Source of the DNA: a virus
Lineage: Duplodnaviria; Heunggongvirae; Uroviricota; Caudoviricetes
DNA: 64,000 nucleotides
Virus record (IMG/VR): IMGVR_UViG_3300031420_000496
Location: 5,472-69,471 of that record
Strand: one strand, 5' to 3'
Of the stretch, positions 12,902 through 59,797 are shown one piece after another (position 1 is the first letter of the stretch; each line of letters starts with the position of its first letter). The position numbers were made by a program, and so were the translations under genes. Under the pieces are notes generated by a model that saw only the letters and a program-made list of their open reading frames with translations, was not told the DNA's origin and did not search any database.

Positions 12902-13148
12902 CGTCGCGTGGCACTGCGTAGTGGGCCATGATGCCTGCAGTTTGCAGAACGATGTCGCCTTCGTTGATGATGGTCCATGGATAGAACTGACAGACCATTC
13001 CGCCTTCAGGATTTTCTTTGGACTTCGGCACGATCTGCATAACCATCATGAGCGGGTCTTGCACAGTCAGAGTGCCATCAGGATTTTCCGACACGACCTT
13101 TGCCACCAGCTCGTCGCCGGTTGTGAGTTTGATACCTTTGATTTGCAT
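12822..13148 (-). CDS. hypothetical protein
   Basis: 108-aa ORF. Confidence 0.45.
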   Translation of the reverse strand: MQIKGIKLTTGDELVAKVVSENPDGTLTVQDPLMMVMQIVPKSKENPEGGMVCQFYPWTIINEGDIVLQTAGIMAHYAVPRDVEQSYNQNTSGLQIVSGAAAQQILHG

Positions 13149-13163
13149 TATGTGTTTCCTTGA

Positions 13164-13508: not shown

Positions 13509-13807
13509 GATACGTCAGGCTTACGGTAAAATGCTTTGACGTTGTCAACGATGAAGCTGCGCCAACCCTGACGGTCGAGCGAGTAGACGTGGAGGAGGTG
13601 ATTTTGTTCGGTGCGAGCTTCGAGTTCTCGTTCCGATTCAGGCAGAAGCCTTTCGTCAAGAGTGCACTCCATGACGGCTGGTGTACCGTCTTTCTTCGTG
13701 AACTCGACAATCCAGCTACCATGCTTGAGCTTGTTGCGGTAATCCTCGCGAAGGCCGGATGGGTTACCTTCCCACTTGTCGATGAGAATCTGGACGATGG
13801 AAGTCAT
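13505..13807 (-). CDS. hypothetical protein
   Basis: 100-aa ORF, ATGA overlap with neighbour. Confidence 0.5.
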   Translation of the reverse strand: MTSIVQILIDKWEGNPSGLREDYRNKLKHGSWIVEFTKKDGTPAVMECTLDERLLPESERELEARTEQNHLLHVYSLDRQGWRSFIVDNVKAFYRKPDVS

Positions 13808-13980
13808 TCGCGCCCCGTCTTTGCCATGATGCCGGCAACAAATTCTTCGATCATGGTGCTGAGAGTGTCTTCGTCGAGTTCCCCAAGCGCGACTGCAACA
13901 GGTGCAGCATCACCAGGAACTTCGATGTAAACGTGTTCAGGTATTTCAAAAGGCTGAATTTTAATTTTCAATGTGGCCAT
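13804..13980 (-). CDS. hypothetical small protein (58 aa, below track cutoff)
   Basis: MATLKIKIQPFEIPEHVYIEVPGD.. ; stop overlaps next start (ATGA). Confidence 0.35.
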   Translation of the reverse strand: MATLKIKIQPFEIPEHVYIEVPGDAAPVAVALGELDEDTLSTMIEEFVAGIMAKTGRE

Positions 13981-13996
13981 TGTTTTCTTTCAAAGT

Positions 13997-14305
13997 TTAG
14001 AGCTTGAGATTTTTGGACAGCTCGTTCAACTGAGCCATTTCCGCTTTAGTTGCCTTGTCGCCAGGGATGAGGCATTTCTGAGCCAGGTCACGTGTCATCA
14101 TGCGCAGTCCAGCTTCGTTTAGCTTGGATGCGATGATAACCTTTTGCTGGCTCGGAGTTGTGTCGATCTGCGTGAAGAAAACATACTGCGCTCCCGTCCC
14201 ACGTTTTGGTGTTGGGTAGAAAGCGTCAGTGAATAGTCCAGCCGCAACCGGCGACAGCTTTGCCTTGTACCACAGTCGTTCGACAACTTCTTTTTCTCGT
14301 TTCAT
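13997..14305 (-). CDS. hypothetical protein
   Basis: ORF from MKREKEVV. Confidence 0.45.
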   Translation of the reverse strand: MKREKEVVERLWYKAKLSPVAAGLFTDAFYPTPKRGTGAQYVFFTQIDTTPSQQKVIIASKLNEAGLRMMTRDLAQKCLIPGDKATKAEMAQLNELSKNLKL

Positions 14306-14449
14306 GATAGGTCCTTTAGTGATGGTTAGATGCCAAAGAACCATTGTACCATGAATCTCGTCAACGTTGACAAAATAACAATGTTACAGTACGGCAACAG
14401 CATCCAGAATTATATTCTATTTACTGTTGCCGAAATGTCATTTTTCGCG

Positions 14450-14749
14450 TTATGCCAGAGCGCGAGCAGCTTCCCACTGTGCTGCCGCTTCTTCCTTCAT
14501 CGCGAACAGATCAGCCAGTGCTACGTTGGCTTCGCGGCGGAGTGCATCGCGCTGTTCGCGCAGAGCTTCAGCCGCACGATAGTTAGCCCAGTATGCGGTG
14601 TGATCGCGGTACGACGTCTTGCCGAACAGGCTCGCAGCGTCCTTGAATTCTTGACGCAGCTTGCGCGATTCTTCCGTCAGGCGATTGTAGTTAGCTTTCC
14701 ATTCAGCGCGGGCAGCCAGGTAGGTTTCTTTGGAGTTGAAGTTCGTCAT
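14450..14749 (-). CDS. hypothetical protein
   Basis: 99-aa Ala/Arg-rich ORF. Confidence 0.45.
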   Translation of the reverse strand: MTNFNSKETYLAARAEWKANYNRLTEESRKLRQEFKDAASLFGKTSYRDHTAYWANYRAAEALREQRDALRREANVALADLFAMKEEAAAQWEAARALA

Positions 14750-14751
14750 GA

Positions 14752-15276
14752 TTAGTTTCCTTTAAGTTTGTTGATGATGTTACGACCGACTTTGTTGAGT
14801 GCCTTGAATTTGATCTTGAAAGACGTGCTTTCAATACCTCCGAACATTTCAGCGTTGGCATGAAGTTCACTGAGTGCCGTGAGCAGAAGTGCTGGTGCGA
14901 GGTCCATGCGATCGTATCCAGCAGCGTCCGCTGGCTTGATCGTGTGCATGTCCATATCTCGCTGGATGAGTTCGGCGATCTGCTCACTTCCGCCGTTGAC
15001 TCGCCAGATCGCTGCGCTGATGCGCGCGTGGTCTGGAAAGTGTTGGCGACCTTCATCGTCAACGGTTACACAATACGGCTTGCCGCAATCGTGGTAGATG
15101 TGGTACTGCTCCATGATTTCTGCCGGTGGGCAGAGTGGCAGCAGGTAATCCAGATCGAACCAGTCCGGCAGTCGCCATTCCATTTTCTGTTCGCCAATGA
15201 GGTCTTTGTATCGGGCCGCAACGGCTTCGCCATGCTGGAGGATCGTTTGACCCTTCGACTGACTACACGACGACAT
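14752..15276 (-). CDS. hypothetical protein, possible HD-domain phosphohydrolase
   Basis: H..HD..H..H..D-like spacing (QHGEAV, YHIYHDCGKP, FPDHARIS); weak. Confidence 0.45.
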   Translation of the reverse strand: MSSCSQSKGQTILQHGEAVAARYKDLIGEQKMEWRLPDWFDLDYLLPLCPPAEIMEQYHIYHDCGKPYCVTVDDEGRQHFPDHARISAAIWRVNGGSEQIAELIQRDMDMHTIKPADAAGYDRMDLAPALLLTALSELHANAEMFGGIESTSFKIKFKALNKVGRNIINKLKGN

Positions 15277-15309
15277 CTTTTCGCGGAGAACCTAGAGGTG
15301 ATGAGCGTT

Positions 15310-15345
15310 CATTTGCATTTCCTTATTTGTCAGCTAATGCTTATA
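15310..15345 (-). promoter_or_regulatory. conserved ~33-bp promoter/leader-like motif (copy 1)
   Basis: TTCCTTATTTGTCAGCTAATGCTTATATTTCT; near-identical copy at 47903-47938, both just upstream of a minus-strand start. Confidence 0.45.
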
Positions 15346-15352
15346 TTTCTTG

Positions 15353-15590
15353 TTAGTCGAACAGCGTATGCAGAGCGTGGTACGTGTCGTCGGTATCGTA
15401 ATCGCCGCAACCCATGTAACGACTCCAATGGACTTTGATCTGCCCGTCTTCCATGGAAATCGATTGGATATGTTTCTCTTCAAACGTACCAGTTCCCCAG
15501 CCAAAGATTGGCGGAGTGATTCTCGACTTGTCGATCGACTCGATCAGTTCTTGATACAGGGAGGCAATCGCCTCGGCTTGGTTGAGGTTC
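15353..15590 (-). CDS. hypothetical protein
   Basis: ORF from MNLNQAEAIASLYQ. Confidence 0.45.
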
Positions 15591-15948
15591 ATTGCTGTTC
15601 TCCTTGGGTAGGCAGACGCCAGAGCTGCAAGCCCTTTGTCAAATGTCGTTGGTCTTCGGTGAGGATGCATGCGATCGCGGTCAGTCCCCATTCCTGGTAC
15701 GGCTCGTGAAATTCGGCTGTAGGAATGCCTGCATCGTTCAGCTTCTGGCGGAGCGATTCAAGTTGCGACTTGTTTTTGATCGTGAGGTGAATGTACGACG
15801 GGTGGTGATCCACTGGTCGGCCATACGTGTAGGCGTGTTCAACGGCAGCGTGGCCGGCTTGAATAGCCTGTTGCGCGAGTGGGAGGTCTCGGCGCGAGAT
15901 GGTGTAGAGGTACGTCTTTTGCGGTTTGGAAATCTAGAGCTTATGCAT
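15589..15948 (-). CDS. PTH2-like peptidyl-tRNA hydrolase with in-frame TAG at codon 5
   Basis: RRDLPLAQQAIQAGHAAVEHAY matches PTH2 core VVRTDLKMGKGKIAAQCSHAA; RBS AGGAT then ATG CAT AAG CTC TAG followed in frame by the domain; no canonical start downstream of the TAG until past the motif. Confidence 0.55.
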
Positions 15949-15983
15949 GATATATCCTAAGTGTGGTGGTCCCATTTTACGGG

Positions 15984-16015
15984 CTCGGCAAGGGACCTCG
16001 GCCGAGTTTTATTTA
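15984..16015 (+). terminator. intrinsic terminator-like hairpin (plus orientation)
   Basis: CTCGGC-aagggacctcg-GCCGAG followed by TTTTATTTAT. Confidence 0.4.
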
Positions 16016-16074
16016 TACGAAAAAATTGCTATAAAAATAAGTCCAGTGTGCTGATACGCCAAATGCTCTAAGGG

Positions 16075-16320
<246 letters not shown>

Positions 16321-16389
16321 TTTTATAACAACTTCATACTGCGTGTTCCATAAATACCTGATTCGATTCTAACACAAACAGGATATTAC

Positions 16390-16653
16390 GTGAGCCTACT
16401 TAAAGAACTAATTCAACTGAACGAGGAAATCAAGGGTCTTGGCGATCCGTCATTCTACAAGGTCAAGAACGTTGAAGAATATACGGACAACGGCAAGAAA
16501 CGTGTCAAGTTCAAAGGTTACAAAAAGCGTAACGGCAAATTCGTTTCAGTCGGATACTTCTCCGCACCAGCCGGTACACCCGAAGACAAACTCTGGAAGG
16601 AAATCGACAAACACTTCCAGAAGCATGACGACGGGGTAGAAGACGACGATTAA
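16390..16653 (+). CDS. hypothetical protein (plus strand, GTG start)
   Basis: RBS AGGAT before GTG; Lys-rich 87 aa with acidic tail; convergent with small minus ORF. Confidence 0.45.
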   Translation: MSLLKELIQLNEEIKGLGDPSFYKVKNVEEYTDNGKKRVKFKGYKKRNGKFVSVGYFSAPAGTPEDKLWKEIDKHFQKHDDGVEDDD

Positions 16654-16815
16654 CGCTTCAGCAAAGCCTTAGCATCCTCGATTGCTCCATACCAGAACTC
16701 GCCGCCATCATCGCAGCAATCGAGGTGATCCACACAGCCCACATTGTGGGCTTCTTTCATTGCGGCAACCAGTCGTTCGACCATTGCCTCCAGTTCTTGT
16801 TCACGCGTCATTTGA
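16645..16815 (-). CDS. hypothetical small Cys-containing protein (56 aa)
   Basis: MTREQELEAMVERLVAAMKEAHNVGCVDHLDCCDDGGEFWYG.. Confidence 0.3.
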
Positions 16816-17176
16816 AAATTCTTGCGATCAGGTTGAAAATCGAAATGCCGAGTCTCACGTTCGCCTTCGATGCTCGTGCTTCAGCGCGAAGTTCTGCTCG
16901 CTCTGCTCTGGCTTCTCGCCGAGCTTGAGCAGGCGTAAGTCCGCTGTTGATCAACTGTTGCACTCGCACTTCATGGTCCACGTCATCCTCCGTTAAGTTC
17001 AGTGACGGCCGGAGCTAATCCCGGCATGTGATACTTTATCAGGAATCCCGCATCTCACTTTCATGAGGCAGCTTCGGACGCCAAGGAAGAGTTGTATGCG
17101 TCCACCCTTATGAACCGCTTCTCCGGTCTGTATCACAACCACAAGTTTCGCGTATTAGCTTACGCATTCGTCACAT

Positions 17177-17295
17177 AACTGGATATTGGATTCGAACCAA
17201 TGACGCTAACCGTAGGGAACATTCACACGAGAATGCTGTATCGGTTTCGGTATCACGTGCCGCTGCACGCCGCTCTCCCACTGAGCTAATCCAGT
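17177..17295 (-). tRNA. elongated tRNA-like gene (~119 nt), CCA not encoded
   Basis: perfect acceptor ACUGGAU/AUCCAGU, universal D-arm AGCUCAGUGGGAGAGC, T-arm AUUGG UUCGAAU CCAAU; about 45 nt extra in anticodon/variable region. Confidence 0.5.
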
Positions 17296-17327
17296 TATGT
17301 GGAACCTCTTGCGAGGTCCAGGCCGCG

Positions 17328-17510
17328 TTAGCCGAGCGTGCGGGTCGTCGGCTTGCCTTCGTCGAGGAAGGTGGCGAACAGCTTGCCCTTGCTGACGTAG
17401 GCCGAAGCAGCGAACTCGGCGCTCAGCTTGCGAGCGGCCGATTCCTTCGTGTTGCCGGTGCTCAGCAGGTGGCGGGCGCGGTCGTTCAGTTCACGGGTAT
17501 TGACGGTCAT
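17328..17510 (-). CDS. hypothetical protein
   Basis: 60-aa ORF. Confidence 0.35.
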   Translation of the reverse strand: MTVNTRELNDRARHLLSTGNTKESAARKLSAEFAASAYVSKGKLFATFLDEGKPTTRTLG

Positions 17511-17539
17511 GTTCAGTTCCTTTAAAGTTGACTACAAAA

Positions 17540-17764
17540 TTAACGACGACGAATGAAGTATCCGCCTTCGTGTTCCGACTGACATCCTACACAACGAGTG
17601 CAGGATGGGTATGCTTCACGTCGCAGTTCAGGAATCGGCTGGTCGCAATCTTCGCATTTTGCTTTGCCCGGCGCCGACAAGATCGATTCGAGAACTGCGC
17701 GACGGTCTTTTACCGTCTGCTCGATCTGTGCTTGAAAATCGTCTTGTGCGCCCCAGCCCTTCAT
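17540..17764 (-). CDS. TraR/DksA-family C4 zinc-finger protein
   Basis: CEDCDQPIPELRREAYPSCTRCVGCQ four-Cys motif typical of phage TraR-like proteins. Confidence 0.75.
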   Translation of the reverse strand: MKGWGAQDDFQAQIEQTVKDRRAVLESILSAPGKAKCEDCDQPIPELRREAYPSCTRCVGCQSEHEGGYFIRRR

Positions 17765-17771
17765 GTACTGC

Positions 17772-17847
17772 TCCTAAATTCTGGTGCCCCGTGCGGGGAT
17801 CGAACCCGCAACCCTCGGTTTTAGAGACCGCCACTCTGCCAGTTGAG
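17772..17847 (-). tRNA. amber suppressor tRNA (anticodon CUA), Trp-like body
   Basis: clean cloverleaf GCCUCGU..ACGGGGC-A-CCA; anticodon arm GCGGU-CUCUAAA-ACCGA matches E. coli tRNA-Trp CCGGU-CUCCAAA-ACCGG except C35->U. Confidence 0.7.
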
Positions 17848-17927
17848 CTAACGAGGCTTAATCTGTACTGCCTGTTTCGTTCAGTGGAATCATTATACCC
17901 GGTTCACACTGTCTTGCACAGCCTTTT

Positions 17928-28070: not shown

Positions 28071-28886
28071 CTATTTGCGACGCTTTTTCTTCTTGTGCTT
28101 CTGCGGCTTCGGTGAGGGTTCGCCAGTGATTGCGCGACGGATTGTCCACGCATCTTGCATGCGAGCTGAACTCGATCCAGCATTGAGCAAGACGATGGTT
28201 GCAGTTTTACCAGCAGCGACGATTCTCATGACAAAGCATCGACCTGATTCTTCGATGTAACCAGTCTTTGACAGACGAATGTCCCAGCCGTTTGCGCCAA
28301 CTAATCTGTTGGTGTTCTTGAAATTTGTACCGTGGATTTGAACCAATTCGGTCGTGGTGATGCGGGTGATGTCTGGATATGCTGATGCCGCTATTGCGAT
28401 GATGGCAAGATCACGTGCGGTGGATACATTGCTTGGCGAGAGTCCGGATGGTTCTACAATCGATGTTCCGCGAAGTCCCAATGCTGCGATTTTCGCTCGC
28501 ATTGCTTCTTGGAATGCTGGTAGTCCGCTTGGATACGTTCTGCCCAGTGCAGTTGCAGCTCTGTTGTCGGAGTGCATCAGCGCGAGTTCCAACGCCTCTG
28601 CTCGTGTCATCTGCCAACCAACACGAACACGTGACATGCTGTGCTTGATTTCATCGACATCAGACTGTTGAATCGTAATTATTTCCTGCATGTTCTGATG
28701 TGCGTCCAGCACTACCATTGCAGTCATGAGTTTTGTCAGTGACGCGATTGGGCTGACGAGGTCAGGTTGTTTTTCGAACAACACTTGACCACCGTCTTCA
28801 ATAACGAACACTGACTGTGAGTTGAACTTCGCGGCAGAACACGTCGCTGAAATCATCCACAACAGAGTAACAAACAGCTTCTTCAT
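28071..28886 (-). CDS. D-alanyl-D-alanine carboxypeptidase/endopeptidase (S11, PBP5/PBP7-like)
   Basis: signal peptide, SLTKLMT (SxxK), SDN and KTG motifs. Confidence 0.8.
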   Translation of the reverse strand: MKKLFVTLLWMISATCSAAKFNSQSVFVIEDGGQVLFEKQPDLVSPIASLTKLMTAMVVLDAHQNMQEIITIQQSDVDEIKHSMSRVRVGWQMTRAEALELALMHSDNRAATALGRTYPSGLPAFQEAMRAKIAALGLRGTSIVEPSGLSPSNVSTARDLAIIAIAASAYPDITRITTTELVQIHGTNFKNTNRLVGANGWDIRLSKTGYIEESGRCFVMRIVAAGKTATIVLLNAGSSSARMQDAWTIRRAITGEPSPKPQKHKKKKRRK

Positions 28887-49465: not shown

Positions 49466-50506
49466 TTATTTTACTTCGATGTTGTACAGCTCAAACAGCA
49501 CGTCTTGCAGCCATGCTTCGGCTTCTGCTTGAAGTTCCGGCGTCTTCTTGCGCATCGTCGATGACTTGATCTTGTCTTGCACTTCGTCGTCGAGTGCCAT
49601 CAGCAAACGTTTCACTTGCTCGAGGTCTTCTTTACCTTGCTTGACGCGCAGCAAGAATTCCGCGTTCGGACGTGGGAACGTGATGCGGCCGGTGTCGAGC
49701 AGTTCGATTGCTTGCTGATACACGCGCACAGCATGCGACAGCGACTTGAAGTCGACGTCAGTTTCAGCAGCGGCATTCGTACGATCGCCGAACTTGTCGA
49801 TCACCTTCACGACCTGGTTACGCAGATGCTCGAGCGTCGTCGATGCCAGGTAATTGCGGCCGTTCAGCTTGAGGCTGTCTTGCGGCGTCTTGCCATTGGT
49901 CATCACTTCCGTTTCGAGATTCGCATTGCGAGCGATCCAGTCCAGAACGGTTTCAGCCGCGTTCAGCTGATCGGACAGACGCGACTCGGCGCCGACGATG
50001 CCGATTGCTTTGTCGACGGTTTCCAGGACGTAACGTGCCGAGTTCAGACGTTCACCACGACGAACGTAGTCGAACGTTTGCTTCATCGCGAAGCCAACCA
50101 TCGAATAGACTTCGGCGTTTGCGAACTTCTCGATCATGTCGCGAACCATCTCTCGCGAATAGTTCAGCGGACCGCTCGTCTGGTCGGCGAAAGCGAAAGC
50201 CATCTCGAGTGCGTACGTCTGGCCGTTGACGAAGTCGCGAACGAACGTCTGCAGCGGGAAGTACTCGGTCTCGACACCGTTGTCCGGCATCGTGAAGCCA
50301 TCGCCGATGCGATTGCCTTCCGCGTCGAAACGCTCTTTGAAGATCGTCAGCTTCTTGCCGAGCAGCATGTCGGAAAGCGACGGAAGGTAAACAACCTTTT
50401 CGTCGGTGTCGGATGTGGGTGTATTCGTGCCGTACAGCTTCGAGCCGTACGTCACCATGAACATATCTTTTTTCATTGGTTCTCTCTTTTGTGTTCTTCC
50501 AGCCAT
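49466..50506 (-). CDS. Pol-beta-superfamily nucleotidyltransferase (MNT/CD-NTase-like)
   Basis: GSKLYGTNTPTSDTDE = GS-x9-DxD signature. Confidence 0.6.
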   Translation of the reverse strand: MAGRTQKREPMKKDMFMVTYGSKLYGTNTPTSDTDEKVVYLPSLSDMLLGKKLTIFKERFDAEGNRIGDGFTMPDNGVETEYFPLQTFVRDFVNGQTYALEMAFAFADQTSGPLNYSREMVRDMIEKFANAEVYSMVGFAMKQTFDYVRRGERLNSARYVLETVDKAIGIVGAESRLSDQLNAAETVLDWIARNANLETEVMTNGKTPQDSLKLNGRNYLASTTLEHLRNQVVKVIDKFGDRTNAAAETDVDFKSLSHAVRVYQQAIELLDTGRITFPRPNAEFLLRVKQGKEDLEQVKRLLMALDDEVQDKIKSSTMRKKTPELQAEAEAWLQDVLFELYNIEVK

Positions 50507-50764
50507 TCGTCGAAGTTCATTGGCTCACCTTCTCCGCCGGCTTCGAGATAGCACATGTACAGATGGTCCAGATAATCTGGGTCCATCAGATCGTCTTCTT
50601 CGGTCATAACTGCAGCCACGGATTATCCGGATCGCTGTTACCGCCTTTGCCGGAACAGCTGCTGTAGCTCGCGCTGTCGCCGAGCAAATACAGTCCGAAG
50701 AAAAGTGTCAGCAGGGCCATGAAGGCCCCGATGATCCAAAGCAGTGTTTCTGCTTCAGCGTCGC

Positions 50765-51271
50765 TCATGCCAGTTCCACCTCTTCAACTTCGTAGTCATA
50801 ATCGGTTTGGCTCAGATAACGGCCAATGCATTCAACAGTATCCGCTTCTTCTTGCGTCAAGCCAGCTTTCACCAGCATCTGACGTGTCACGGCAACAGCG
50901 CGCTGTTCCCACTCGTTGTACACAACAGAAAATTCTTCTGCGTGTTGACGTGCTATTGCACGCACGCGTTCTTCTTCAGCTTGGAACGTTGCGAGAATTT
51001 CTGGATCGGCATTCTTTTTGCTGCCCCACTTCGGTTTCCATTTTGGGAGACTTACACCCAGCACTGGTGCTTGCGGGCTTGGATTCTCTTTTTCCCACGC
51101 AATGTATTCAGCACGAACTTTGTGCTGCACTTCGTTCTTGCGTTCTTGCGTCGTCTGCAGATTGAACCGCAGAGTTTCTGCGTCGATGTAATTCGTGAAC
51201 GCTTTGACATTGCGAACGTGCGCGCTGTCGTAGTCGATTTCTGATTCCACTACAAGAAAGATTACCGCCAT
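50765..51271 (-). CDS. hypothetical protein
   Basis: 168-aa ORF. Confidence 0.5.
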   Translation of the reverse strand: MAVIFLVVESEIDYDSAHVRNVKAFTNYIDAETLRFNLQTTQERKNEVQHKVRAEYIAWEKENPSPQAPVLGVSLPKWKPKWGSKKNADPEILATFQAEEERVRAIARQHAEEFSVVYNEWEQRAVAVTRQMLVKAGLTQEEADTVECIGRYLSQTDYDYEVEEVELA

Positions 51272-51546
51272 GATTATTCCTCTCCGTCTTCGTCGTTCTG
51301 CATCAGGCGAGCGAAGTTACGTTCCATCTGATCCAGCGGTGCGTTAATAAGATTTCCAAAACCGTCGTCGATGAAAACGATGTTCGGCATATGCAGGTGA
51401 TCGGTAATCATTTTGTTCTCCGTAAGTCGATGAGAAGATTATATCCCAGCGATTTACGAATGCACACAACTTTATAAACGACAGACATATTGTACCATTG
51501 CTAATATTTTGTAACAGTAAATAAACAAGTTGAACGGACTGGACTT

Positions 51547-52143
51547 ATGAAGAAATATCACATACTATACAAGACGACATGCTTAACAACCGGCAAGTTC
51601 TATTATGGTCGACATTCAACCAACAATAAGAATGACAAGTATTTGGGAAGCGGTAAGATTATTTTGTTGTCCATAAAGAAATATGGTTCAAGCAATCATG
51701 CACGAGAAATACTGGAAGAATGTGAAAGCCTCGAAGAGTTGGTCAAACGCGAAGAAGAATTCATCACGCCAGAAATGTTAGCTGATCCAAACTGTATGAA
51801 CTTGAAACCAGGTGGTGAAGGCGGAAAAGGTTTAGTATGGACTGAAGAGGCAAAGACTAAACTTTCTAATACAGTCACTGGCAGAAAGAAAACACCAGAG
51901 CACGCCGAGAAACTTCGACAATCGAATATAGGTAAAAATCTTGGAAAGAAACCAAGCGCTGAAACATTGGCATTATATTCATCTCAGCGCAAAGGTGTTC
52001 CGAAATCTGCCGAGCATAATCGTAAAAACTCTGAAGCGTTGAAAGCTGCTTGGGTACGCCGTAAGGCTAAAGCCGCCCTTGCTCAATCAGATGAAGCTGA
52101 AGAAGAACAACATACGAATACGCCAGTGCGTGTGATTTCTTGA
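51547..52143 (+). mobile_element. GIY-YIG homing endonuclease gene (plus strand)
   Basis: KYHILYKTTC..GKFYYGRHST GIY-YIG core, basic C-terminal DNA-binding region; 3' end overlaps minus-strand pol fragment. Confidence 0.8.
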
Positions 52144-52642
52144 ACGCATAGCCAGTCTCGTCTTTTGCGAACAGAATTTTGCGGGCGGACTCTCGGTCCT
52201 TCTTGTAAAGCGGAATGAACATTCGCTTTGCTGGGCGGATCAATGCCATGACATCGGCAAGTTCCATAATCGACTTCGGCTTCAGTGCACTGAGCAGATC
52301 GCCATGCTTGCCGAGCTGAAAGATTTTCTCTTGAGCGGACGGCACTTGGAGCAACGACCAATCAGGTTCTTTCTTCAGCAGCTCTTCAATCTCAGCACGC
52401 GAGTTGAAGTGTTTGTAAACAGACAGATTCAGGAAGTCGACTTTCAAGTATCCGAAATCCTCGGCTTGATCGTACGGAATCGCCGCCAACCCAGTGACCG
52501 GATCAGTTGCGATCTTTTGCGGATAGACACCGCACGGGTGTGGCGACAGCTTGCCGTCTTTCAGAATCATGGCACGTGGCCAGGTCGGAAATACTTTTGC
52601 TGGGTCAAACCTCGTTTTGTCCGTGTCGATGTCGACGTCCAT
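52067..52642 (-). CDS. DnaE-like (C-family polymerase) palm fragment
   Basis: MDVDIDTD ~ PDFDVDF, KVDFLNL ~ KMDFLGL (D555), GYAFKKSHALAYSYVVLLQLHLIE ~ [24 protein letters not shown]. Confidence 0.6.
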   Translation of the reverse strand: MDVDIDTDKTRFDPAKVFPTWPRAMILKDGKLSPHPCGVYPQKIATDPVTGLAAIPYDQAEDFGYLKVDFLNLSVYKHFNSRAEIEELLKKEPDWSLLQVPSAQEKIFQLGKHGDLLSALKPKSIMELADVMALIRPAKRMFIPLYKKDRESARKILFAKDETGYAFKKSHALAYSYVVLLQLHLIEQGRL

Positions 52643-52878
52643 TACTTATCTTCGTCCTTCTTCTTTTTCTTTGCCTGCTCGACCTTGACCAACATGACAA
52701 TCTGCGGAACAGCTTCTTGCCATCGCGCTGTCAAGGTCGGGTCATCACTTTCGCAAAAGCGAACATCGAACCAACCACGCTTCACGGCGTAGTCGTTCAG
52801 AATAACAGTGTTGAAAACCTTGGAATAGAATCGCTTGGCATCATCGCCCATCGACTCAAATAGTTTGCGGCCAGTCAT
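52642..52878 (-). CDS. hypothetical protein
   Basis: ORF from MTGRKLFESMGDD; stop overlaps next start (TAATG). Confidence 0.35.
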   Translation of the reverse strand: MTGRKLFESMGDDAKRFYSKVFNTVILNDYAVKRGWFDVRFCESDDPTLTARWQEAVPQIVMLVKVEQAKKKKKDEDK

Positions 52879-53633
52879 AGGTCGAGTTCCTTGCATGCCT
52901 TCGAGAACTCTGTGAACAACGCAATGTTCTCTGGGCTCTGCTGAATGCGCATAATCATTGCGCCAACCTGCACGCCACCTTCCAATCGGTTTGCTTCCAT
53001 TTCTTCCCGGCTCTTCATGTACGTACGGAACGCAGTAGAAGAAACCAGAAACCACGGAGACAGTTTTCGTTTTTGCACTAGATCAAGAATCTTCGTAACA
53101 CCGATCTGCTCGAAGACTTGATTTGGCTCGCACTCGTATTCCTTCGCATACTCCATTACAAGATCGAGCGAATTGACGAACTGCGTGGTAGGGCTTACGA
53201 TCTTATCATAACCCTGGAGGTACATTGCATAAACATTATCACGGCACCACAGCACTGGTTGAACGTTGCCGTTCTCAACCATGGCTTTGACGAAGCCATC
53301 TGGGTTAGGCATGTTGACGCGCTTCACGTGGTTTGCAAACTTGATGAAGGCGTTGTAAAGGATTGATGATGCGAACGTTTCCATTGGCGGAACAGACCGC
53401 TTGTTCAGACGCATCCACGCACTGTAGTATGCGTACGCTGCTTGACCTACTGGGCCACGCAGCTCGTCGATGCGTTCACGTTCACGGCAACGATGCTTCA
53501 TGAACGTGCGTTCGCTTGCGAAATCGTGAGAACAAAACTCACAAGTCCACTTCACCTTTCGTAATGGTGTTTCTTCTTGGACAGCGTTATTTCTTCTTGA
53601 CGCTGCTTGGTTTCTTAGGGCTTCCCGATCCAT
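52875..53633 (-). CDS. C2H2 zinc-finger protein
   Basis: KVKWTCEFCSHDFASERTFMKHRC. Confidence 0.5.
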   Translation of the reverse strand: MDREALRNQAASRRNNAVQEETPLRKVKWTCEFCSHDFASERTFMKHRCRERERIDELRGPVGQAAYAYYSAWMRLNKRSVPPMETFASSILYNAFIKFANHVKRVNMPNPDGFVKAMVENGNVQPVLWCRDNVYAMYLQGYDKIVSPTTQFVNSLDLVMEYAKEYECEPNQVFEQIGVTKILDLVQKRKLSPWFLVSSTAFRTYMKSREEMEANRLEGGVQVGAMIMRIQQSPENIALFTEFSKACKELDL

Positions 53634-54081
53634 CGCCGACCTCTTTTTTTAGCTTAGCTAGCTCTTCTTTATCCCACCCACATTCCTCTGCCATGGCGAG
53701 AATATCTTCTGCATCGATAGCGTCAGCATAACCAACTGCTTCGCGTGTCGAGATGTCGTAGTATTGTTTGATCGCTTCCAGCCGTAACTTCGTCACAGCC
53801 TTCATACCCGGCGCTTTGATCCACGAGTAACGTTTGGACTTGCCAGTCGCTGCCGCAGCCAAAAGCGAGAACAACAGACCTTTCTCCGAACCCAGCGAGA
53901 AGAGGTATGGGTTGACGAAGGTATTTATCCGGATGAGCTGTGCTTGGTCATTTGTGCCAGTCATCCACCGTGCGATGACGAATGGTGCAGCAGCTTTCTT
54001 GTCTTCGTCAGACAGGTTCGCGTACCATTGCAGGTCACGTTTCGACAGGTCAGACAAACCCTGGAACAAATCAAAACTCAT
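53587..54081 (-). CDS. hypothetical protein
   Basis: 164-aa ORF with Lys-rich tail. Confidence 0.45.
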   Translation of the reverse strand: MSFDLFQGLSDLSKRDLQWYANLSDEDKKAAAPFVIARWMTGTNDQAQLIRINTFVNPYLFSLGSEKGLLFSLLAAAATGKSKRYSWIKAPGMKAVTKLRLEAIKQYYDISTREAVGYADAIDAEDILAMAEECGWDKEELAKLKKEVGDGSGSPKKPSSVKKK

Positions 54082-54305
54082 ACGATACGAACCTTGTAGG
54101 TGGTAGGTGTTACTTCGAATTTAGATATTTTAACCTTGTATCCGGAGAACATCAGGTAATTTCCGTAAACGGGACCGGCCGCTTCGTCGACGACCCCTTC
54201 GGCATCTACGAACTGCATGAGCGCGTCATACACTTTTGTTGGGAGTCTGATGGCATGAATTGTTCCATCAGGAAATGATGCTGTGTACATAGTTTCTCTC
54301 TTCAA
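54078..54305 (-). CDS. hypothetical protein
   Basis: 75-aa ORF. Confidence 0.4.
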   Translation of the reverse strand: MKRETMYTASFPDGTIHAIRLPTKVYDALMQFVDAEGVVDEAAGPVYGNYLMFSGYKVKISKFEVTPTTYKVRIV

Positions 54306-54416
54306 TTTTTTGGCAGTGTGGACAATGGCGTCTTGTCACCAGCGGCGAGTTGAACCGTTTGCTGAAGGGTGCGCACCAAGGTGTCCACTCGTGGAAACCG
54401 AGACGGCACCGCCAGT

Positions 54417-55328
54417 TCATACCAACGCGGCTATCTCGATGAAGAGCGCTGCGACTTGCAGTTCCGGGTCAGCGACGAATCCATGCTGGTATTGATATTG
54501 CGCGATGAGCACAACAGCTTCGTCTTGACGCTTCAGCTTCTTCATGCGGTGGAGGTTGTCGTACAAGAACCGGTACACGTCGACGAGTTCTTCGCGAGTG
54601 GCCGATGCGCAGACGACGTCGCGTGCTGCTTTGATTTCACCAGCTTCGATCAGCGGCAACAGTTCGAGCTTCCAGTCTTTCGCGGAGTCAGCACCTTTGA
54701 TGACGAGCTTACCGGTCTTGCTGGACTGTTCCATCAGCTGGATGACTTTGCGGAAGTCGGGATAACCAGCTGCAACAACTTTCTCGAGGTCATCGAGAGT
54801 GAATGCGATGTTCTCGGCTTCCAGAATCTCGGCAGCCTTGATGAGGACTTCGTCTTTCGATGGAGCTTTGAATTCAAACTCCTGGAATCGCGAGCGCAGC
54901 GGAGTCATGATGGTGTTGACGTAGTTGCATGTCGCAATGAAGCGGCACGAACTCGACGAGACTTCCATCAGGTCACGCAACAGCTTCTGCGCATCATGTC
55001 CGACACCGTCCAACTCTTCGAGACGAACAATCTTGAACTTGCCGACCGGCATCGTCATGGCGAAGGCTTTCACCTTGTCACGCATGGCTTCGATCTTCTC
55101 GTCCGAACAGTTGATCTTCAGAATGTCACTGCGATCGACGTTCAGGTCTTTGACCAGTGCGAGCGACAGTGAAGACTTGCCGGTACCAGGTCCACCGTAA
55201 AGCAGCAGGTTCGGAATCTCGCCTTCGGTCACATACTGCTGGAAGGTCTTGTAGTCGTGTTCATCAGTCGCGATGACCTGTGACACGGATTGCGGACGGT
55301 ATTTCTCAACCCAAACTTTTTTCAACAT
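54417..55328 (-). CDS. sliding-clamp loader AAA+ subunit (T4 gp44/RFC-small-like)
   Basis: WVEKYRP, Walker A LLLYGGPGTGKSS. Confidence 0.85.
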   Translation of the reverse strand: MLKKVWVEKYRPQSVSQVIATDEHDYKTFQQYVTEGEIPNLLLYGGPGTGKSSLSLALVKDLNVDRSDILKINCSDEKIEAMRDKVKAFAMTMPVGKFKIVRLEELDGVGHDAQKLLRDLMEVSSSSCRFIATCNYVNTIMTPLRSRFQEFEFKAPSKDEVLIKAAEILEAENIAFTLDDLEKVVAAGYPDFRKVIQLMEQSSKTGKLVIKGADSAKDWKLELLPLIEAGEIKAARDVVCASATREELVDVYRFLYDNLHRMKKLKRQDEAVVLIAQYQYQHGFVADPELQVAALFIEIAALV

Positions 55329-55564
55329 TAGTCGTTCTCTTCGTTAAGCCATTTACGTTGTTGGATTCTACGCGCAAGCACTTCTTCGCGTTCTCGTTGT
55401 TCCGCGGTCTTTCGTTTCGGCGGAACGCCTTGGTAATAGTCTTTCATTACGCGTGCGGCTTGTTCGACTTCTCGATCACCACAGCGCGATGCAGCGTCCA
55501 ACCAATCAAATAACATACTCATACTTTTCTCCGGTTGCAACAGTGCAAAGACATAACATGCCAT
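55328..55564 (-). CDS. hypothetical protein
   Basis: 78-aa ORF. Confidence 0.4.
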   Translation of the reverse strand: MACYVFALLQPEKSMSMLFDWLDAASRCGDREVEQAARVMKDYYQGVPPKRKTAEQREREEVLARRIQQRKWLNEEND

Positions 55565-55588
55565 AATACACTGTTTTCATAGACGGTT

Positions 55589-56872
55589 TTACTTTCTTGC
55601 TGAAGGACGGAAACCTGGATTGCGATGTGCGTCGACGATCGTTGCTGGATCAGGTTGTACAATGCCCAATGTTGAGCGTGTAATCTCTTCGCGGTGGATT
55701 GGTACTTGCGCGACTTTCATCGGGATGAACTGCGAGCGATCGGGTTCAACAACGATTTCAGGAAGTTCCACGTTGACCGGTTTCAAGATGCCAGTCTGCT
55801 CGTAGGTTTCTTTCGGCTCTTCGTACTTCTCGTACTTGGTCTCTGGAATCGGGTCGCCAACATAACCTTCTTCACGAGCCTGCTCGGCTTTCTCCAACCA
55901 GACTTTGTCTTCTGCTTCGCTCGTTGCAGCGAGGGTGTTTGCACCTTCCCATGCGAAGCCGTTGAAGATGTACATCTGATGATGTTCCGGATGGAAGAAC
56001 ACGTCGTTCTTCTTCGGATTTGCTGGGAACTCTGAACCGACTTTATCGGCTTCTTCGTCGATCAGATGTTCGCTGTGAGTTCCCTTCATTGGCTTGAACT
56101 CTTGAAAACCTTCAGGTTGCGGTTCATCAAACACCTCGACCTTTGCCGGCTCTTGTTCGACAACTGGCACTTGCTTCTCTGCCAACTTCTCTTCTTTGCG
56201 ACGAGCCCACAGATAGTTGCCAGCGATGATGAGGAAGATGGCGAGCGGGTCAAACACGAAGATAATCATCGCGATGACGTACGACACTGCCTTTTCCATT
56301 GGAACATCGAGACCTTTCGAGATAGCAACGATCGGACCCGCTTTCGCTTCCGTGCCGATCTGTTTGATCTGCGCTTCTGGCAATTGCTTGTCGATGTCTG
56401 CGATCTTCTTGTCCAGCGCTTTCTGTTCTGCCTGGAAACTGCGGATCAGTCGAAGTCGTTGATTGACCGTCGTCTTTGTTGGGAGCGCGGCAATCTGATC
56501 GTCGATCTGTTTCTTGCGAAGTTCATATTTCGCTTGCTGTTCTTTCATGACGGCAACTTTCACGTCGCCTTCCTTCGCGCCCATAATGGACTTCTGGAAT
56601 TCACCCGTCAAATACCCTGCGGCACCTGACGAGGTGATAATCATGGTGACTATTGCCGCAGCGAAAGCGTACGGCTTCATCAGTCTCGGTAAAGTTTTCC
56701 AGTGCGTGTACAGAAGCGAAACCGTTACAATCTTACCAACGTCAAGAGCTATTGCAAGGGCGATTATGATTGGGTTTGCTCCGAACAGCGCAGAAATACC
56801 GATGACGGAAACAAGAGAACCAAGGCCCTCGATGAAAAGTGCCGCTGCGAAAGTAAGGATTATAAAGAACAT
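55589..56872 (-). CDS. polytopic membrane protein with central coiled coil
   Basis: multiple TM helices at both ends. Confidence 0.5.
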   Translation of the reverse strand: MFFIILTFAAALFIEGLGSLVSVIGISALFGANPIIIALAIALDVGKIVTVSLLYTHWKTLPRLMKPYAFAAAIVTMIITSSGAAGYLTGEFQKSIMGAKEGDVKVAVMKEQQAKYELRKKQIDDQIAALPTKTTVNQRLRLIRSFQAEQKALDKKIADIDKQLPEAQIKQIGTEAKAGPIVAISKGLDVPMEKAVSYVIAMIIFVFDPLAIFLIIAGNYLWARRKEEKLAEKQVPVVEQEPAKVEVFDEPQPEGFQEFKPMKGTHSEHLIDEEADKVGSEFPANPKKNDVFFHPEHHQMYIFNGFAWEGANTLAATSEAEDKVWLEKAEQAREEGYVGDPIPETKYEKYEEPKETYEQTGILKPVNVELPEIVVEPDRSQFIPMKVAQVPIHREEITRSTLGIVQPDPATIVDAHRNPGFRPSARK

Positions 56873-56873
56873 T

Positions 56874-57353
56874 TTATTGGGCGCTTATAGCGAAACGGAA
56901 AGTTGCGTAGGAGTGTTTTGAAAAATCTTCTTTGGTCAGGGTATACGGTGAAGTGTACCAGACTGCGTCGTGCAGGTTGACGACGTCACCAGGCTTCTTG
57001 GCTTTCAGCCATTCAGCATGTGGTACGTCCAACGCGATCGGATGCAGGTATCCGGTCAGTCCCTTGAATGCGTCGAAGCAATGCGGGTCTTCGAAGTAAA
57101 TCTTCACCAACTTCGATTTGTCGAGTACGGCGCTTGGACGTTCAACATGTGGCACAGTGTAGTCCAGCTTGACAATCGGATCGTTGTCCAGATATTCTGG
57201 AACGATCTTACCTTCCCAGACTTTGACTCCGCTGTGTGGTAATGCTTCGCCGAGTTTCAGACTTGGATTGACTTCGAGAATTTTGCTGAGAATGCCGGCG
57301 AGCAATTCTTCTTTCGGCATGTCCAGCAGCGGGTGTGGATAGTATTCGGTCAT
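56874..57353 (-). CDS. hypothetical protein
   Basis: 159-aa ORF. Confidence 0.45.
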   Translation of the reverse strand: MTEYYPHPLLDMPKEELLAGILSKILEVNPSLKLGEALPHSGVKVWEGKIVPEYLDNDPIVKLDYTVPHVERPSAVLDKSKLVKIYFEDPHCFDAFKGLTGYLHPIALDVPHAEWLKAKKPGDVVNLHDAVWYTSPYTLTKEDFSKHSYATFRFAISAQ

Positions 57354-57685
57354 TTGATGAACTCCGTACCTTCGGTGAGTTTGATGTCGTCAGTGACGAA
57401 GATGATTTTGTCCTCGTCAGTTTTCCACATCTTTTGACCGTCGACTTCAGTTCCGTACGTCCACATCAGGCCCTCGATGAGAATGTATTCGCCGACCTTG
57501 ATAGATGCTTCAGGGCCTACAGCAAGCACCTCGCCCCAACGAGGTTGCTTTTGCTGCATATCGGTTTGCGCAATGATAATGCCACTGCCGAGGATTCGGT
57601 CAGTGAATTTACCTTTGCCGCCTCCGGTTTCGTCGAGAAACCGGAACATGATGTTACCATTGAGGGGATGTACGATTGTTGGCAT
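57350..57685 (-). CDS. GroES-like co-chaperonin
   Basis: PLNGNIMFRF..GEVLAVGP..KVGEYILIE parallels GroES. Confidence 0.65.
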   Translation of the reverse strand: MPTIVHPLNGNIMFRFLDETGGGKGKFTDRILGSGIIIAQTDMQQKQPRWGEVLAVGPEASIKVGEYILIEGLMWTYGTEVDGQKMWKTDEDKIIFVTDDIKLTEGTEFIK

Positions 57686-57719
57686 GCTATGTCCTATGAG
57701 TATTTCCTGCTGGATGGTG

Positions 57720-57944
57720 TTACTTGCGCTGCTTTGCTTTGCCCGATTGTTCTGCAGCCTCGGCGGAAACTGCCAGGAAATCGATGTCAGGTGCGACGGA
57801 AGACTTCACTCCGTCCTTTGCATCGATGGCCTGTTTCCGTTGCTCAACTGCTTTTGGCACTGGTGCCGAAGCGAGTTGTTGTTTGATGGCGAGCATTTCG
57901 AAGTCGATAAGTTCGCCGCGGGCGCTTCTGATGAGTTGTCCCAT
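57720..57944 (-). CDS. hypothetical protein
   Basis: 74-aa ORF. Confidence 0.35.
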   Translation of the reverse strand: MGQLIRSARGELIDFEMLAIKQQLASAPVPKAVEQRKQAIDAKDGVKSSVAPDIDFLAVSAEAAEQSGKAKQRK

Positions 57945-58015
57945 TGTATGTAGTCTCCGGATAATGGCGCTTGGTTGCGCACACTATATTTATAGTTCTT
58001 TTTCTATAGACCGGA

Positions 58016-58243
58016 TTATGGGATGAGTTGTCGCTTCTTCGCCAGCAAAGCAGCCTTTGCGGCTTCTCGTTCTGGGCAAGTCGCCCGATGATAGTTGTCG
58101 TAGCGGCGAAGCAGGTCGAGCTGATTCTCGATCAACACCAACGTTTCATGTCTGTGTCTACGATCGTTCAACCAGCTCACATCAAGCGCATCTTGGCGTG
58201 CATCGGAGATTGTGAAATAATTCGGTGGAAGTTGTGGAATCAT
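58016..58243 (-). CDS. hypothetical protein
   Basis: 75-aa ORF. Confidence 0.4.
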   Translation of the reverse strand: MIPQLPPNYFTISDARQDALDVSWLNDRRHRHETLVLIENQLDLLRRYDNYHRATCPEREAAKAALLAKKRQLIP

Positions 58244-58245
58244 AA

Positions 58246-58806
58246 TCAGTCGTGGAAGAATTCATCGGCCGGCACGTCCAAGACAACACAATCGACAACG
58301 TGCAAACCAATGAGATAGAGAAGATACGAAGCGCAAGACGAACCACGCCCGACTCCCCACAGAACATTGTTCTCACGCAACTGGTCAATGATGTAGATGA
58401 CGGTCTGCATAAATTGTACCATGCCACGAGCTTCAACTTCTTGAAGTTCGTCAACGATACGATCCAGGGCTTTCTCAACCATCTCTGGTGTATACGATGC
58501 CGGGCAGTTCTTCTCGAACTGTTTGGCCATGTACTCTTGCAGATCGAGATTCTGATACTCTTCAGGTAGCTGCCAACCCATGTCGAGGTTGATCGGCTCT
58601 TGTTGAACAGGCAACAGCTGTTCGCGTTCAGACACTTGCGTGTTGAACTCGGCGATGTCTGGTGTTTCAGAGGTGACGCGCAACTTGTTGGGTGGAATTC
58701 CCAAAAGCAAAAACCGGGCCAACTGGTCCGGTTCTATCTCAGACACTCCGTCGAAACGGAGGTTGCGGTCGCTCAGCTCAGACTTGAGGGACTTCAATGA
58801 GTTCAT
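58246..58806 (-). CDS. DnaE-like polymerase fragment (region just N-terminal of catalytic aspartates)
   Basis: MVQFMQTVIYIIDQLRENNVLWGVGRGSSCASYLLYLIGL ~ [41 protein letters not shown]. Confidence 0.6.
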   Translation of the reverse strand: MNSLKSLKSELSDRNLRFDGVSEIEPDQLARFLLLGIPPNKLRVTSETPDIAEFNTQVSEREQLLPVQQEPINLDMGWQLPEEYQNLDLQEYMAKQFEKNCPASYTPEMVEKALDRIVDELQEVEARGMVQFMQTVIYIIDQLRENNVLWGVGRGSSCASYLLYLIGLHVVDCVVLDVPADEFFHD

Positions 58807-59116
58807 CGGCGAGGTCCACTGGTTGGACGGGTTGTGTTACTTGACGACGCGCGTTTTCCAGCTGCGTCTCGGCGCTGGTCTTGCGCTTGACCTTCAGTGC
58901 GTGGCACGCGAACTTGGCAAGCACGTAGGTCGGCACGTCGGTGTACGGATATTCCGGATAGAACATCACGTTGCCCCAGCGTCCCGTTTCGAGGAACGAC
59001 TTGAGGGATTCGCAGTGCGCTTTCTTCGACGGATCGAACGACACGCGGTGGTTCGAAACTTGGCGCAGGATCGAGGACCGGGCCAAGTGGTCATTGGGTT
59101 CGACGAAATCAGGCAT
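58778..59116 (-). CDS. possible DnaE-like PHP-region fragment (weak)
   Basis: NHRVSFDPSKKAHCE ~ NDVRFIDSSDFDAHE; overlaps next fragment by 29 nt in another frame. Confidence 0.3.
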   Translation of the reverse strand: MPDFVEPNDHLARSSILRQVSNHRVSFDPSKKAHCESLKSFLETGRWGNVMFYPEYPYTDVPTYVLAKFACHALKVKRKTSAETQLENARRQVTQPVQPVDLADELIEVPQV

Positions 59117-59263: not shown

Positions 59264-59797
59264 TTATTGGTCTACTGCGTAGCACAGTGGATTGCGGCAC
59301 GCGGTCGACTTTGGATCGCACATGCAAGCATTCTTCACTGGTGGTTTCACGAGCTGATGACATGGTACACCACGCTTCTCCAAACGTTCAACGCCTTCAG
59401 GCAGGCGATAGTGATTGCGGTAAACAACGCGGGCAATCTTCGCTTGGACGATCAGCTTCGCGCATTCAGGGCAGGGTGAGTAAGTGGTGTACAGAGTTGC
59501 GCCTTCGGAACCGCCACCAGCTGCTGCGAGTTTCAGAATCGCATTGGCTTCAGCGTGAAGGACTTCTTGCTTAGTGACAACATTGCCTGCGTCATCGTAG
59601 ATTTCGCATACGTCATCATCACCAGTTGCACCGGCAGGCATGCCGTTATAACCGTCCGAGATGATGCGCCCGTTCTTGACGATGAGCGCACCAACTTGAA
59701 GGCGATTGGCTTTGGAACGTTTCGACCAGACTTCCGCCATCTGCATGTAGGCTTCGTCTATCTCGATACGGTTTTGGTTTATGGTCAGTTTTTTCAT
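59264..59797 (-). CDS. dCMP (deoxycytidylate) deaminase
   Basis: HAEANAI..SPCPECAKLI zinc-binding motifs. Confidence 0.85.
   Translation of the reverse strand: MKKLTINQNRIEIDEAYMQMAEVWSKRSKANRLQVGALIVKNGRIISDGYNGMPAGATGDDDVCEIYDDAGNVVTKQEVLHAEANAILKLAAAGGGSEGATLYTTYSPCPECAKLIVQAKIARVVYRNHYRLPEGVERLEKRGVPCHQLVKPPVKNACMCDPKSTACRNPLCYAVDQ

Follow-up and report, generated by a model that had tools for sequence, protein, structure and literature searches.

Polymerases of the C family, the replicases of bacteria, usually consist of one polypeptide that exceeds 1000 residues. In cyanobacteria, a polymerase of this type is encoded by two genes, dnaE-n and dnaE-c, which are split within the fingers region and whose products are trans-spliced by a split intein to the full-length protein. 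Split family B polymerases include the T4-related gp43, in which the gene is divided by an insertion with a homing endonuclease, and the archaeal family B polymerase encoded by two genes. The closest described system was reported from group 2.2 jumbo phages under the name "minimal, split Pol III alpha" (Iyer et al. 2021, Viruses 13:63; PMC7824862, sections 3.4.1 and 3.5); there, it is proposed that the two halves reconstitute an enzyme, with a family B polymerase alongside. In the 2018 paper on phage Atu_ph07, gp316 was annotated as the alpha subunit of DNA polymerase III (Pol III), and a conserved gene for a DnaQ-like epsilon subunit was noted. Here, we analyzed a 64,000-nucleotide (nt) stretch of DNA (hereafter the window, whose numbering is used throughout) from an uncultivated jumbo phage of approximately 375 kilobases (kb; IMG/VR record IMGVR_UViG_3300031420_000496). 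Two minus-strand open reading frames (ORFs) of the window, 58246-58806 (half A, 186 amino acids [aa]; a homologue of gp316) and 52067-52642 (half B, 191 aa), are the subject of this report. We assign them, with a probability of roughly 0.85, as the conserved N-terminal and C-terminal halves, respectively, of the minimal Pol III alpha core that is specific to group 2.2 jumbo phages. The split minimal Pol III alpha was already published in 2021, and the window is a rediscovery of it in a new, uncultivated member.

The product of half A was matched by the Pfam family PF07733 (DNA_pol3_alpha) at E = 1e-9 and 38.8 bits, above the cut-off of 23.9 bits, with residues 92-183 of A lying on positions 2-93 of the profile. 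A was also matched over its full length by phrog_11127 (171 positions, "DNA polymerase"; E = 1e-35), and it corresponded to positions 333-425 of the long DnaE family phrog_405. For comparison with the alpha subunits of E. coli and Taq, family hidden Markov models (HMMs) built from metagenomic homologues were used as profiles. Residues 111-181 of A were aligned to residues 321-391 of E. coli alpha, and the stretch W150-GVGRGSSCA of A corresponded to the E. coli stretch from residue 359, with the GS motif of A aligned to 361-GRGSG and R154-G-S156 equivalent to R362-G-S364. The original prediction that this ORF represents the DnaE segment just before the catalytic site was therefore borne out by both the profile match and the mapped motif. 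The GS motif, which contacts the triphosphate of the incoming dNTP in Pol III structures, was invariant (G153-R-G-S-S157) in the 62 sequences of A compared; A comprises palm helices and ends just after this nucleotide-binding motif. The AlphaFold2 model of A had a predicted local distance difference test (pLDDT) score of 91.5, and its top twelve Foldseek matches in the Protein Data Bank (PDB) were all Pol III alpha or PolC. In addition to the palm part, A has a family-specific N-terminal domain (approximately residues 1-75), modelled as three short strands and two helices, which carries a conserved L-R-F-D-G motif with invariant R17, D19 and G20 and was matched neither by Pfam nor by any solved structure of Pol III. 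Note that one metagenomic homologue of A (P0163, 278 aa) bears a further N-terminal extension of approximately 95 aa annotated as PF26948; this extension is unrelated to the 112-aa ORF found upstream of A in the window, and could reflect fusion to a small gene upstream.

Half B was matched over its full length by phrog_11778 (197 positions, "DNA polymerase"; E = 2e-57), and it corresponded to positions 577-678 of phrog_405. As had been predicted, B begins at the catalytic DxDxD strand, with D2, D4 and D6 equivalent to D401, D403 and D405 of E. coli alpha, and carries the third catalytic aspartate at D69 (D555), which is preceded by K67 (K553); D2, D4, D6, K67 and D69 were all invariant in the 60 sequences of B compared. 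Furthermore, G164-Y-A-F-K-K-S-H171 of B corresponds to 752-GYGFNKSH of E. coli. In the profile comparisons, residues 95-138 and 162-184 of B were aligned to residues 598-642 and 752-774 of E. coli alpha, and Taq alpha was matched at E = 1.9e-5, with residues 58-158 and 162-177 of B corresponding to 608-721 and 809-824, respectively. The AlphaFold2 model of B had a pLDDT of 92.9, and its top 12 Foldseek matches were all Pol III alpha or PolC, with probabilities of up to 1.00 and a best E-value of 5e-4. The fingers are reduced in B, whereas their motifs (FQL, ALIRP and GYxFKKSH) are kept and invariant: approximately 110 residues separate RPG from the GYxFKKSH-type motif in E. coli, compared with approximately 23 in B. 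The first catalytic strand is separated from the strand of the third aspartate by 60 residues in B versus 148 in E. coli, and since the model contains only beta-sheet between the aspartate strands, the thumb is essentially absent. B then stops directly after the KSH helix.

The original prediction held that B is truncated where a plus-strand GIY-YIG gene overlaps it; the overlap is real, since the last 77 nt of the GIY-YIG ORF cover the 3' end of B, but the truncation is not, because B has the same end (...HLIEQGRL) in relatives both with and lacking the endonuclease, its profile is covered in full, and nearly all of the homologues listed are 189-192 aa long. Read-through of the TAG stop of B, for which a tRNA gene with a CUA anticodon is available in the window, was likewise rejected, because different stop codons are used in the relatives and the sequence beyond the stop lacks conservation.

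When A and B were joined in silico, the concatenated query could be aligned with the alpha subunit of Taq Pol III across the junction, at E = 1.4e-8 (query 110-324 on Taq 380-596), consistent with the prediction that the two pieces, which are transcribed in the same direction 5.6 kb apart, abut in sequence space. At the junction itself, "...EFFHD|MDV---DIDTD" lies opposite Taq "...ERFLNPERVSMPDIDTDF", with the B strand facing Taq DIDTDF and approximately 3 residues missing relative to Taq. In the concatenation, the PF07733 match was extended to residues 92-194 and 43.3 bits, from residues 92-183 and 38.8 bits in A alone. The polypeptide is broken at the short linker that, in a continuous chain, joins the final palm helix, here in A, to the first catalytic strand, here in B.

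Other regions of Pol III alpha were searched for by comparing E. coli DnaE with all ORFs in the six reading frames of the window. Neither B nor the rest of the window was found to contain a beta-binding, OB or tau-binding region; of the earlier statement that fingers, beta-binding and OB regions are all missing, the latter two parts stand, and the fingers are present in reduced form inside B. No further DnaE-like ORF was found in the window. There was also no credible match for the PHP domain, the only weak one (4578-4862) overlapping tRNA genes, and PF02811 gave no match in A or in the 112-aa ORF (58778-59116) located upstream of it. This ORF had been predicted to be a PHP-like piece overlapping A by 29 nt. 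The overlap was confirmed, but the PHP-like assignment was rejected: the ORF had no Pfam or PHROG match, no phage tblastn match at E <= 0.01 and none to E. coli DnaE at E <= 10. A 46% identical ORF was detectable in the metagenomic relative L005 only (L002, L005 and L012 are the metagenomic relatives used for locus comparison), and its position is occupied by a different gene in L002 and by the dCMP deaminase gene in Ralstonia phage RsoM2USA. A frameshift fusion of this ORF with A was also rejected, because the upstream neighbor differs between relatives. The 112-aa ORF is not part of the polymerase.

We then considered whether the two halves are functional genes. The nearest isolate relative of the window phage is RsoM2USA, followed by Xanthomonas phage XacN1 and Stenotrophomonas phages, and the farther relatives are Atu_ph07 and the RaK2/121Q/PA5oct group; a megablast search with the region gave no match among isolate phages. 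By tblastn, B was detected in 96 isolate-phage records with at least 80% coverage, and A in 92, full length in 8 of them and as the palm part in the rest; the two genes co-occur in about 92-96 jumbo phage genomes. Among metagenomic sequences, an identical copy of the A protein occurs in several assemblies, on contigs of approximately 375 kb. An exhaustive profile search gave 687 representatives at E <= 1e-3, among which the profile starts within the first 12 or so residues of the protein in most full-length matches. There were 356 homologous clusters for A and 719 for B, nearly all of them, among the matches listed, 181-188 aa and 189-192 aa long, respectively. Between the window phage and three relatives, the proportion of nonsynonymous differences (pN) was 0.10-0.23, compared with a saturated synonymous proportion (pS) of 0.72-0.85, values comparable to those of the clamp loader. 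A and B are under purifying selection.

These data bear on the earlier suggestion that A and B are a decaying relic, that is, non-functional pieces left over from a once complete dnaE. Such a relic would fit the shortness of the pieces and the loss of the PHP, thumb, beta-binding and OB regions, and the complete family B polymerase in relatives could make a DnaE redundant. However, hundreds of homologues keep a constant length and the same termini, the catalytic residues are invariant, pN, like that of the clamp loader, is far below saturated pS, A and B are each modelled with confidence as compact folds, and phages infecting Alpha-, Beta- and Gammaproteobacteria have all kept the pair. We therefore regard decay as so improbable as to be almost negligible, and the original suggestion is contradicted.

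The spacing of the halves bears on a second suggestion, namely that a dnaE gene was interrupted by mobile DNA, such as an endonuclease cassette, an intron or a split intein, and is rejoined as RNA or protein. In the window, A lies upstream of B on the same strand with 5603 nt between them. In other phages, the distance is about 4 kb (RsoM2USA), about 14-15 kb (Xoo-sp13, XacN1 and CM1/RAS14), about 30 kb (Vibrio phage 2.275.O, in which B is upstream of A), 182 kb (Atu_ph07) and 224 kb (Phosso). The same break point at spacings of 4-224 kb indicates that the split is old and that its position is fixed. The block between the halves in the window contains the genes for the clamp-loader large subunit, a small-subunit-like protein, a GroES/gp31-like protein and a 427-aa protein; it consists of conserved replication-module genes, arranged in the same order as in RsoM2USA and the metagenomic relatives. 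The block is not a mobile insertion. In favor of an interruption, a GIY-YIG homing endonuclease gene adjoins B, and insertions of free-standing endonucleases are known to split phage polymerase genes such as the T4-related gp43. The endonuclease gene, however, is located downstream of B rather than between the halves, and it is lacking in relatives having the same split. No intron or other RNA family was found in the block, Rfam matches being limited to tRNAs elsewhere in the window, and no Hint or intein match was obtained with Pfam. Moreover, A ends (...EFFHD) and B starts (MDVDID) inside DnaE-homologous residues, leaving no room for intein halves. With the halves as much as about 224 kb apart in other phages and the gene order shared with related phages, we consider an interruption by mobile DNA very improbable, and the comparison of synteny did not sustain the idea of an inserted block.

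The GIY-YIG gene itself (51547-52143, plus strand, convergent with B) encodes a free-standing, Seg-like homing endonuclease. Residues 1-170 were matched by phrog_314 (homing endonuclease) at E = 3e-39, and the Pfam family SegE_GIY-YIG was matched at E = 0.023, under its cut-off; the tblastn matches include genes of T4-like phages annotated as segE or Seg-like. The nearest homologue in an isolate phage is encoded by RsoM2USA, at a different locus. The conserved part of the endonuclease ends at approximately 52057, just before the stop codon of B, and its overlap with B consists of an unconserved endonuclease tail running antisense into B. The gene is not present at this site in L002, L005 and L012. 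Nucleotide similarity to the relatives stops at 52074-52077 and resumes at 50464-50489, delimiting a variable island of 1.6 kb (approximately 50490-52073) just downstream of B, which contains the GIY-YIG gene together with 168-aa and 54-aa ORFs; the relatives carry other small genes at this site. The guanine-cytosine (GC) content of the GIY-YIG gene is 40.6%, compared with 51.8% for the window. As with the Seg-type GIY-YIG endonucleases of T4, the gene matches phrog_314, has low GC and is sporadically present; it differs from them in being convergent with polymerase half B and overlapping its 3' end. It is a homing endonuclease gene in its own right that was inserted immediately downstream of B, and it is no part of the polymerase. 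By analogy with other free-standing homing endonucleases, its predicted target is probably the conserved B region of endonuclease-free genomes.

Additional information came from relatives in which the two halves are joined. Three of the 150 best representatives are long, and all three retain the GS motif and the catalytic carboxylates. P0342 (375 aa; L007:1066-2193) is a colinear A-B single chain, in which the PF07733 match runs through the junction (profile 12-121), and P0382 (336 aa; L009:3171-4181) is also a colinear A-B fusion. P0384 (398 aa; L008:871-2067) is permuted, with B first and the palm part of A second. The N-terminal domain of A is present in the fused P0342 but not in the fused P0382. 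The P0382 gene is immediately preceded by a PF03090 Replicase gene, the two overlapping by 4 nt, and the P0384 gene precedes an AAA_25 helicase-like gene. Note that the contigs of P0382 and P0384 are short and that each fused or permuted form is represented by one contig; in IMG/VR, no further fused forms and no close relatives of the three proteins were found. The cited sections of the 2021 description (PMC7824862) do not mention fused or permuted forms. The existence of both fused and permuted single chains provides Rosetta-stone support that the halves act together in replication.

A third possibility is that A and B are functional but do not form a templated polymerase, acting instead as another nucleotidyltransferase of the Pol-beta superfamily (in tailing, nucleotide-signal synthesis or a priming-like reaction) or as a non-catalytic component of the replisome. 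The absence of thumb, clamp-binding and proofreading modules would be compatible with such a role, as would the family-specific N-terminal domain of A and the separate family B replicase in relatives; no activity data were found in the literature. On the other hand, the fingers motifs that are specific to the C family (FQL..., RP(G) and GYxFKKSH) are kept and invariant, and all significant structural neighbors are replicative C-family polymerases. In addition, A and B flank clamp-loader genes in the window phage, RsoM2USA and close metagenomic relatives, and the fused relatives adjoin the PF03090 Replicase gene or the AAA_25 helicase-like gene, both of which indicate a setting in replication. 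Taken together, a function other than templated synthesis appears unlikely.

Several observations weigh against the assignment of A and B as a minimal, split Pol III alpha. First, the A-family profile found nothing at E <= 0.01 among PDB sequences, so that the sequence support for A comes from Pfam, the concatenated query and the fold matches. Second, the match of B to PF17657 (Pol III fingers) was weak (E = 6e-4, 19.6 bits) and below the cut-off of 22 bits. Third, no family B polymerase was found in the 64-kb window, and the PolB of this genome was not seen; ORF451 of RsoM2USA is a family B polymerase, and one relative has PolB, A and B on a single contig of 349,660 bp. Fourth, with a near-absent thumb and no recognisable clamp-binding or proofreading domain, a role as a processive replicase is uncertain. 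Finally, no biochemical or genetic report of activity or of A-B association, and no experimental follow-up, was found in the literature. Among the options raised in the original prediction, that of a multi-subunit minimal C-family polymerase is supported, and this option agrees with the published description of group 2.2 (PMC7824862).

Of the nucleotidyltransferase palm, which is Pol-beta-like, A provides the N-terminal part with the GS motif, and B provides the beta-sheet with the carboxylates D2, D4 and D69, the lysine preceding the third aspartate and the pared-down fingers. All catalytic elements of the C-family palm, plus minimal fingers, are thereby found in the two conserved polypeptides taken together. 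The two polypeptides may assemble non-covalently into one active site, and the assembly would then be a second DNA polymerase performing templated synthesis beside the T4-type family B polymerase that relatives carry. Co-expression of A and B with the clamp loader whose genes they bracket is probable in this lineage, and this clamp loader is a possible partner, as is the DnaQ-like exonuclease for which relatives have a separate gene. A more far-reaching version, which we put forward tentatively and hold to be doubtful, is that the approximately 375 residues of A and B are a self-sufficient polymerase lacking thumb and PHP domain, the smallest of the C family, working in jumbo phages as an obligate heterodimer in an otherwise T4/archaeo-eukaryotic-type replisome, maybe recruited by the phage clamp and the clamp loader encoded between the halves, as a dedicated second-strand or repair polymerase. 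The location of single-chain and permuted relatives beside primase-type Replicase and helicase-like genes on small contigs suggests that the core may replicate small mobile replicons. If the core were self-sufficient, the ancestral catalytic module of Pol III would have a living model in it.

The minus-strand genes are tightly packed from the dCMP deaminase gene (59264-59797), the first of the run, down to B. The deaminase gene is followed by the 112-aa ORF, half A, two small ORFs, the GroES/gp31-like gene (57350-57685), a 159-aa ORF and the 427-aa ORF (55589-56872), which had been noted earlier as a membrane protein and had no Pfam family. Next are a 78-aa ORF (55328-55564) and, just downstream of it, the gene for the clamp-loader large subunit (54417-55328), a gp44/RFC-like AAA+ protein that was matched by phrog_168 (E = 1e-77) and PF00004 (E = 3e-14), as well as by Gp44_lid at E = 5.6e-5, under its Pfam cut-off; its position is unchanged in RsoM2USA and the metagenomic relatives. 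After a 75-aa ORF, there is a candidate clamp-loader small subunit (53587-54081, 164 aa), which was matched by phrog_225 ("clamp loader of DNA polymerase"; E = 1.9e-5) and phrog_11758 (E = 5e-16), and L002 and L005 have a 164-aa ORF at the corresponding position. The gene downstream of it (52875-53633) encodes a 252-aa protein with a zinc-finger-like C-x2-C...H-x4-C motif, matched by phrog_11058 at E = 7e-39. By tblastn, this protein was found in 93 phage records, the same set of jumbo phages as for A and B; its homologue in PAC2 is annotated as a "C2H2-type domain-containing protein", and that in phage Phosso is encoded 1.3 kb upstream of B. The 252-aa zinc-finger-like protein is a core gene of the jumbo-phage group having A and B.

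Between this gene and B lies a second 78-aa ORF (52642-52878), which is translationally coupled to B. Read from the sequence, its ATG overlaps the TGA stop of the 252-aa gene (ATGA), and its TAA stop overlaps the ATG of B (TAATG); the several start/stop overlaps of this kind are consistent with co-translation. A 71-75-aa ORF takes its place in L002, L005 and L012. We considered this ORF as a conserved third subunit and rejected it, because it has no homologue in isolate phages. The region from 50.4 to 60.4 kb was also scanned with promoter and terminator consensus sequences. Terminator-like sites occurred at chance level and promoter-like sites at about twice the shuffle mean, and no site of either type was at a plausible minus-strand intergenic position, so that the scan is uninformative on operon structure. 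Beyond the variable island, a gene for an RlaP-like nucleotidyltransferase of the Pol-beta family (PF10127) is located at 49466-50506 on the minus strand, and the region of 42-48 kb contains, by colinearity with relatives, genes for an ATP-dependent DNA ligase, a metallophosphatase, an HNH protein and an RNA ligase. These genes and the PF10127 gene could form a cluster for RNA/DNA repair beside the replication module.

Elsewhere in the window, a tRNA array spans 214-17857 on the minus strand, with 28 genes called by ARAGORN and 23 by Rfam. It includes the gene with the CUA anticodon (17782-17857; amber-suppressor type, labelled tRNA-Pyl), an odd call at 5049-5123, and a 134-nt Rfam match at 5585-5718 without an ARAGORN call, which may carry an insert. 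TAG stops are rare, being used by 5 of the 91 minus-strand ORFs, three of which are in the tRNA region, and there was no sign of TAG recoding in the window. One ORF ending in TAG (28071-28886, minus strand, 271 aa) has a signal-peptide-like N-terminus and an S-x-x-K motif; read by eye, this candidate resembles a D-Ala-D-Ala carboxypeptidase or endopeptidase. The 233-codon "extension" following its TAG was rejected as read-through, being the next gene in the same frame.

The minimal catalytic unit of the C family would be defined by a conserved core of approximately 377 residues in two pieces, and a Pol-beta-like palm could be built from two polypeptides that are separated directly ahead of the first catalytic strand. 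Such a core would also place a bacterial-type polymerase module inside a T4/archaeo-eukaryotic-type replisome, a point that was made computationally in 2021 in the sections cited above. What the window adds is the bracketing of clamp-loader genes by the halves, the purifying selection, the confident folds, and the fused and permuted relatives.

In comparison with known systems, A and B share the palm, the GS motif, the three aspartates, the fingers motifs and the predicted fold with DnaE and PolC (E. coli and Taq; PDB 2hnh, 2hpi, 3e0d and 5fku). They differ in comprising approximately 377 aa in two chains rather than a single chain of 1160 aa, in lacking the PHP, beta-clamp-binding, OB and tau-binding regions and nearly all of the thumb, and in the extra N-terminal domain carried by A. 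With the intein-split DnaE of cyanobacteria, they share the origin of a dnaE-type polymerase from two separated genes, whereas A and B have no intein, are broken at the catalytic strand and represent a minimal core. With the split family B polymerases, they share a catalytic core in two polypeptides needing non-covalent assembly and the presence of homing endonucleases nearby. The fold, however, is that of family C instead of B, and the split of phage gp43 is lineage-specific and caused by insertion, whereas the A/B split is ancient, group-wide and independent of the endonuclease. The system described for group 2.2 in the cited sections of PMC7824862 is the same in having standalone halves, an N-terminal one that binds NTP and a C-terminal one for Mg2+/template binding, encoded by separate genes, without other Pol III domains. 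According to those sections, its phages have a T4-like replisome with a polymerase of family B and a clamp loader resembling RFC, of which the clamp loader is present in the window. The group 2.2 phages Atu_ph07, XacN1, the RaK2/121Q-like phages and PA5oct encode direct homologues of A and B. The window differs from that description in that the two genes, as in RsoM2USA, are close (5.6 kb in the window) and bracket the clamp-loader genes instead of being distant, and in that a homing endonuclease gene is inserted just after B. Between the window and the split Pol III alpha of group 2.2, there is no essential difference.

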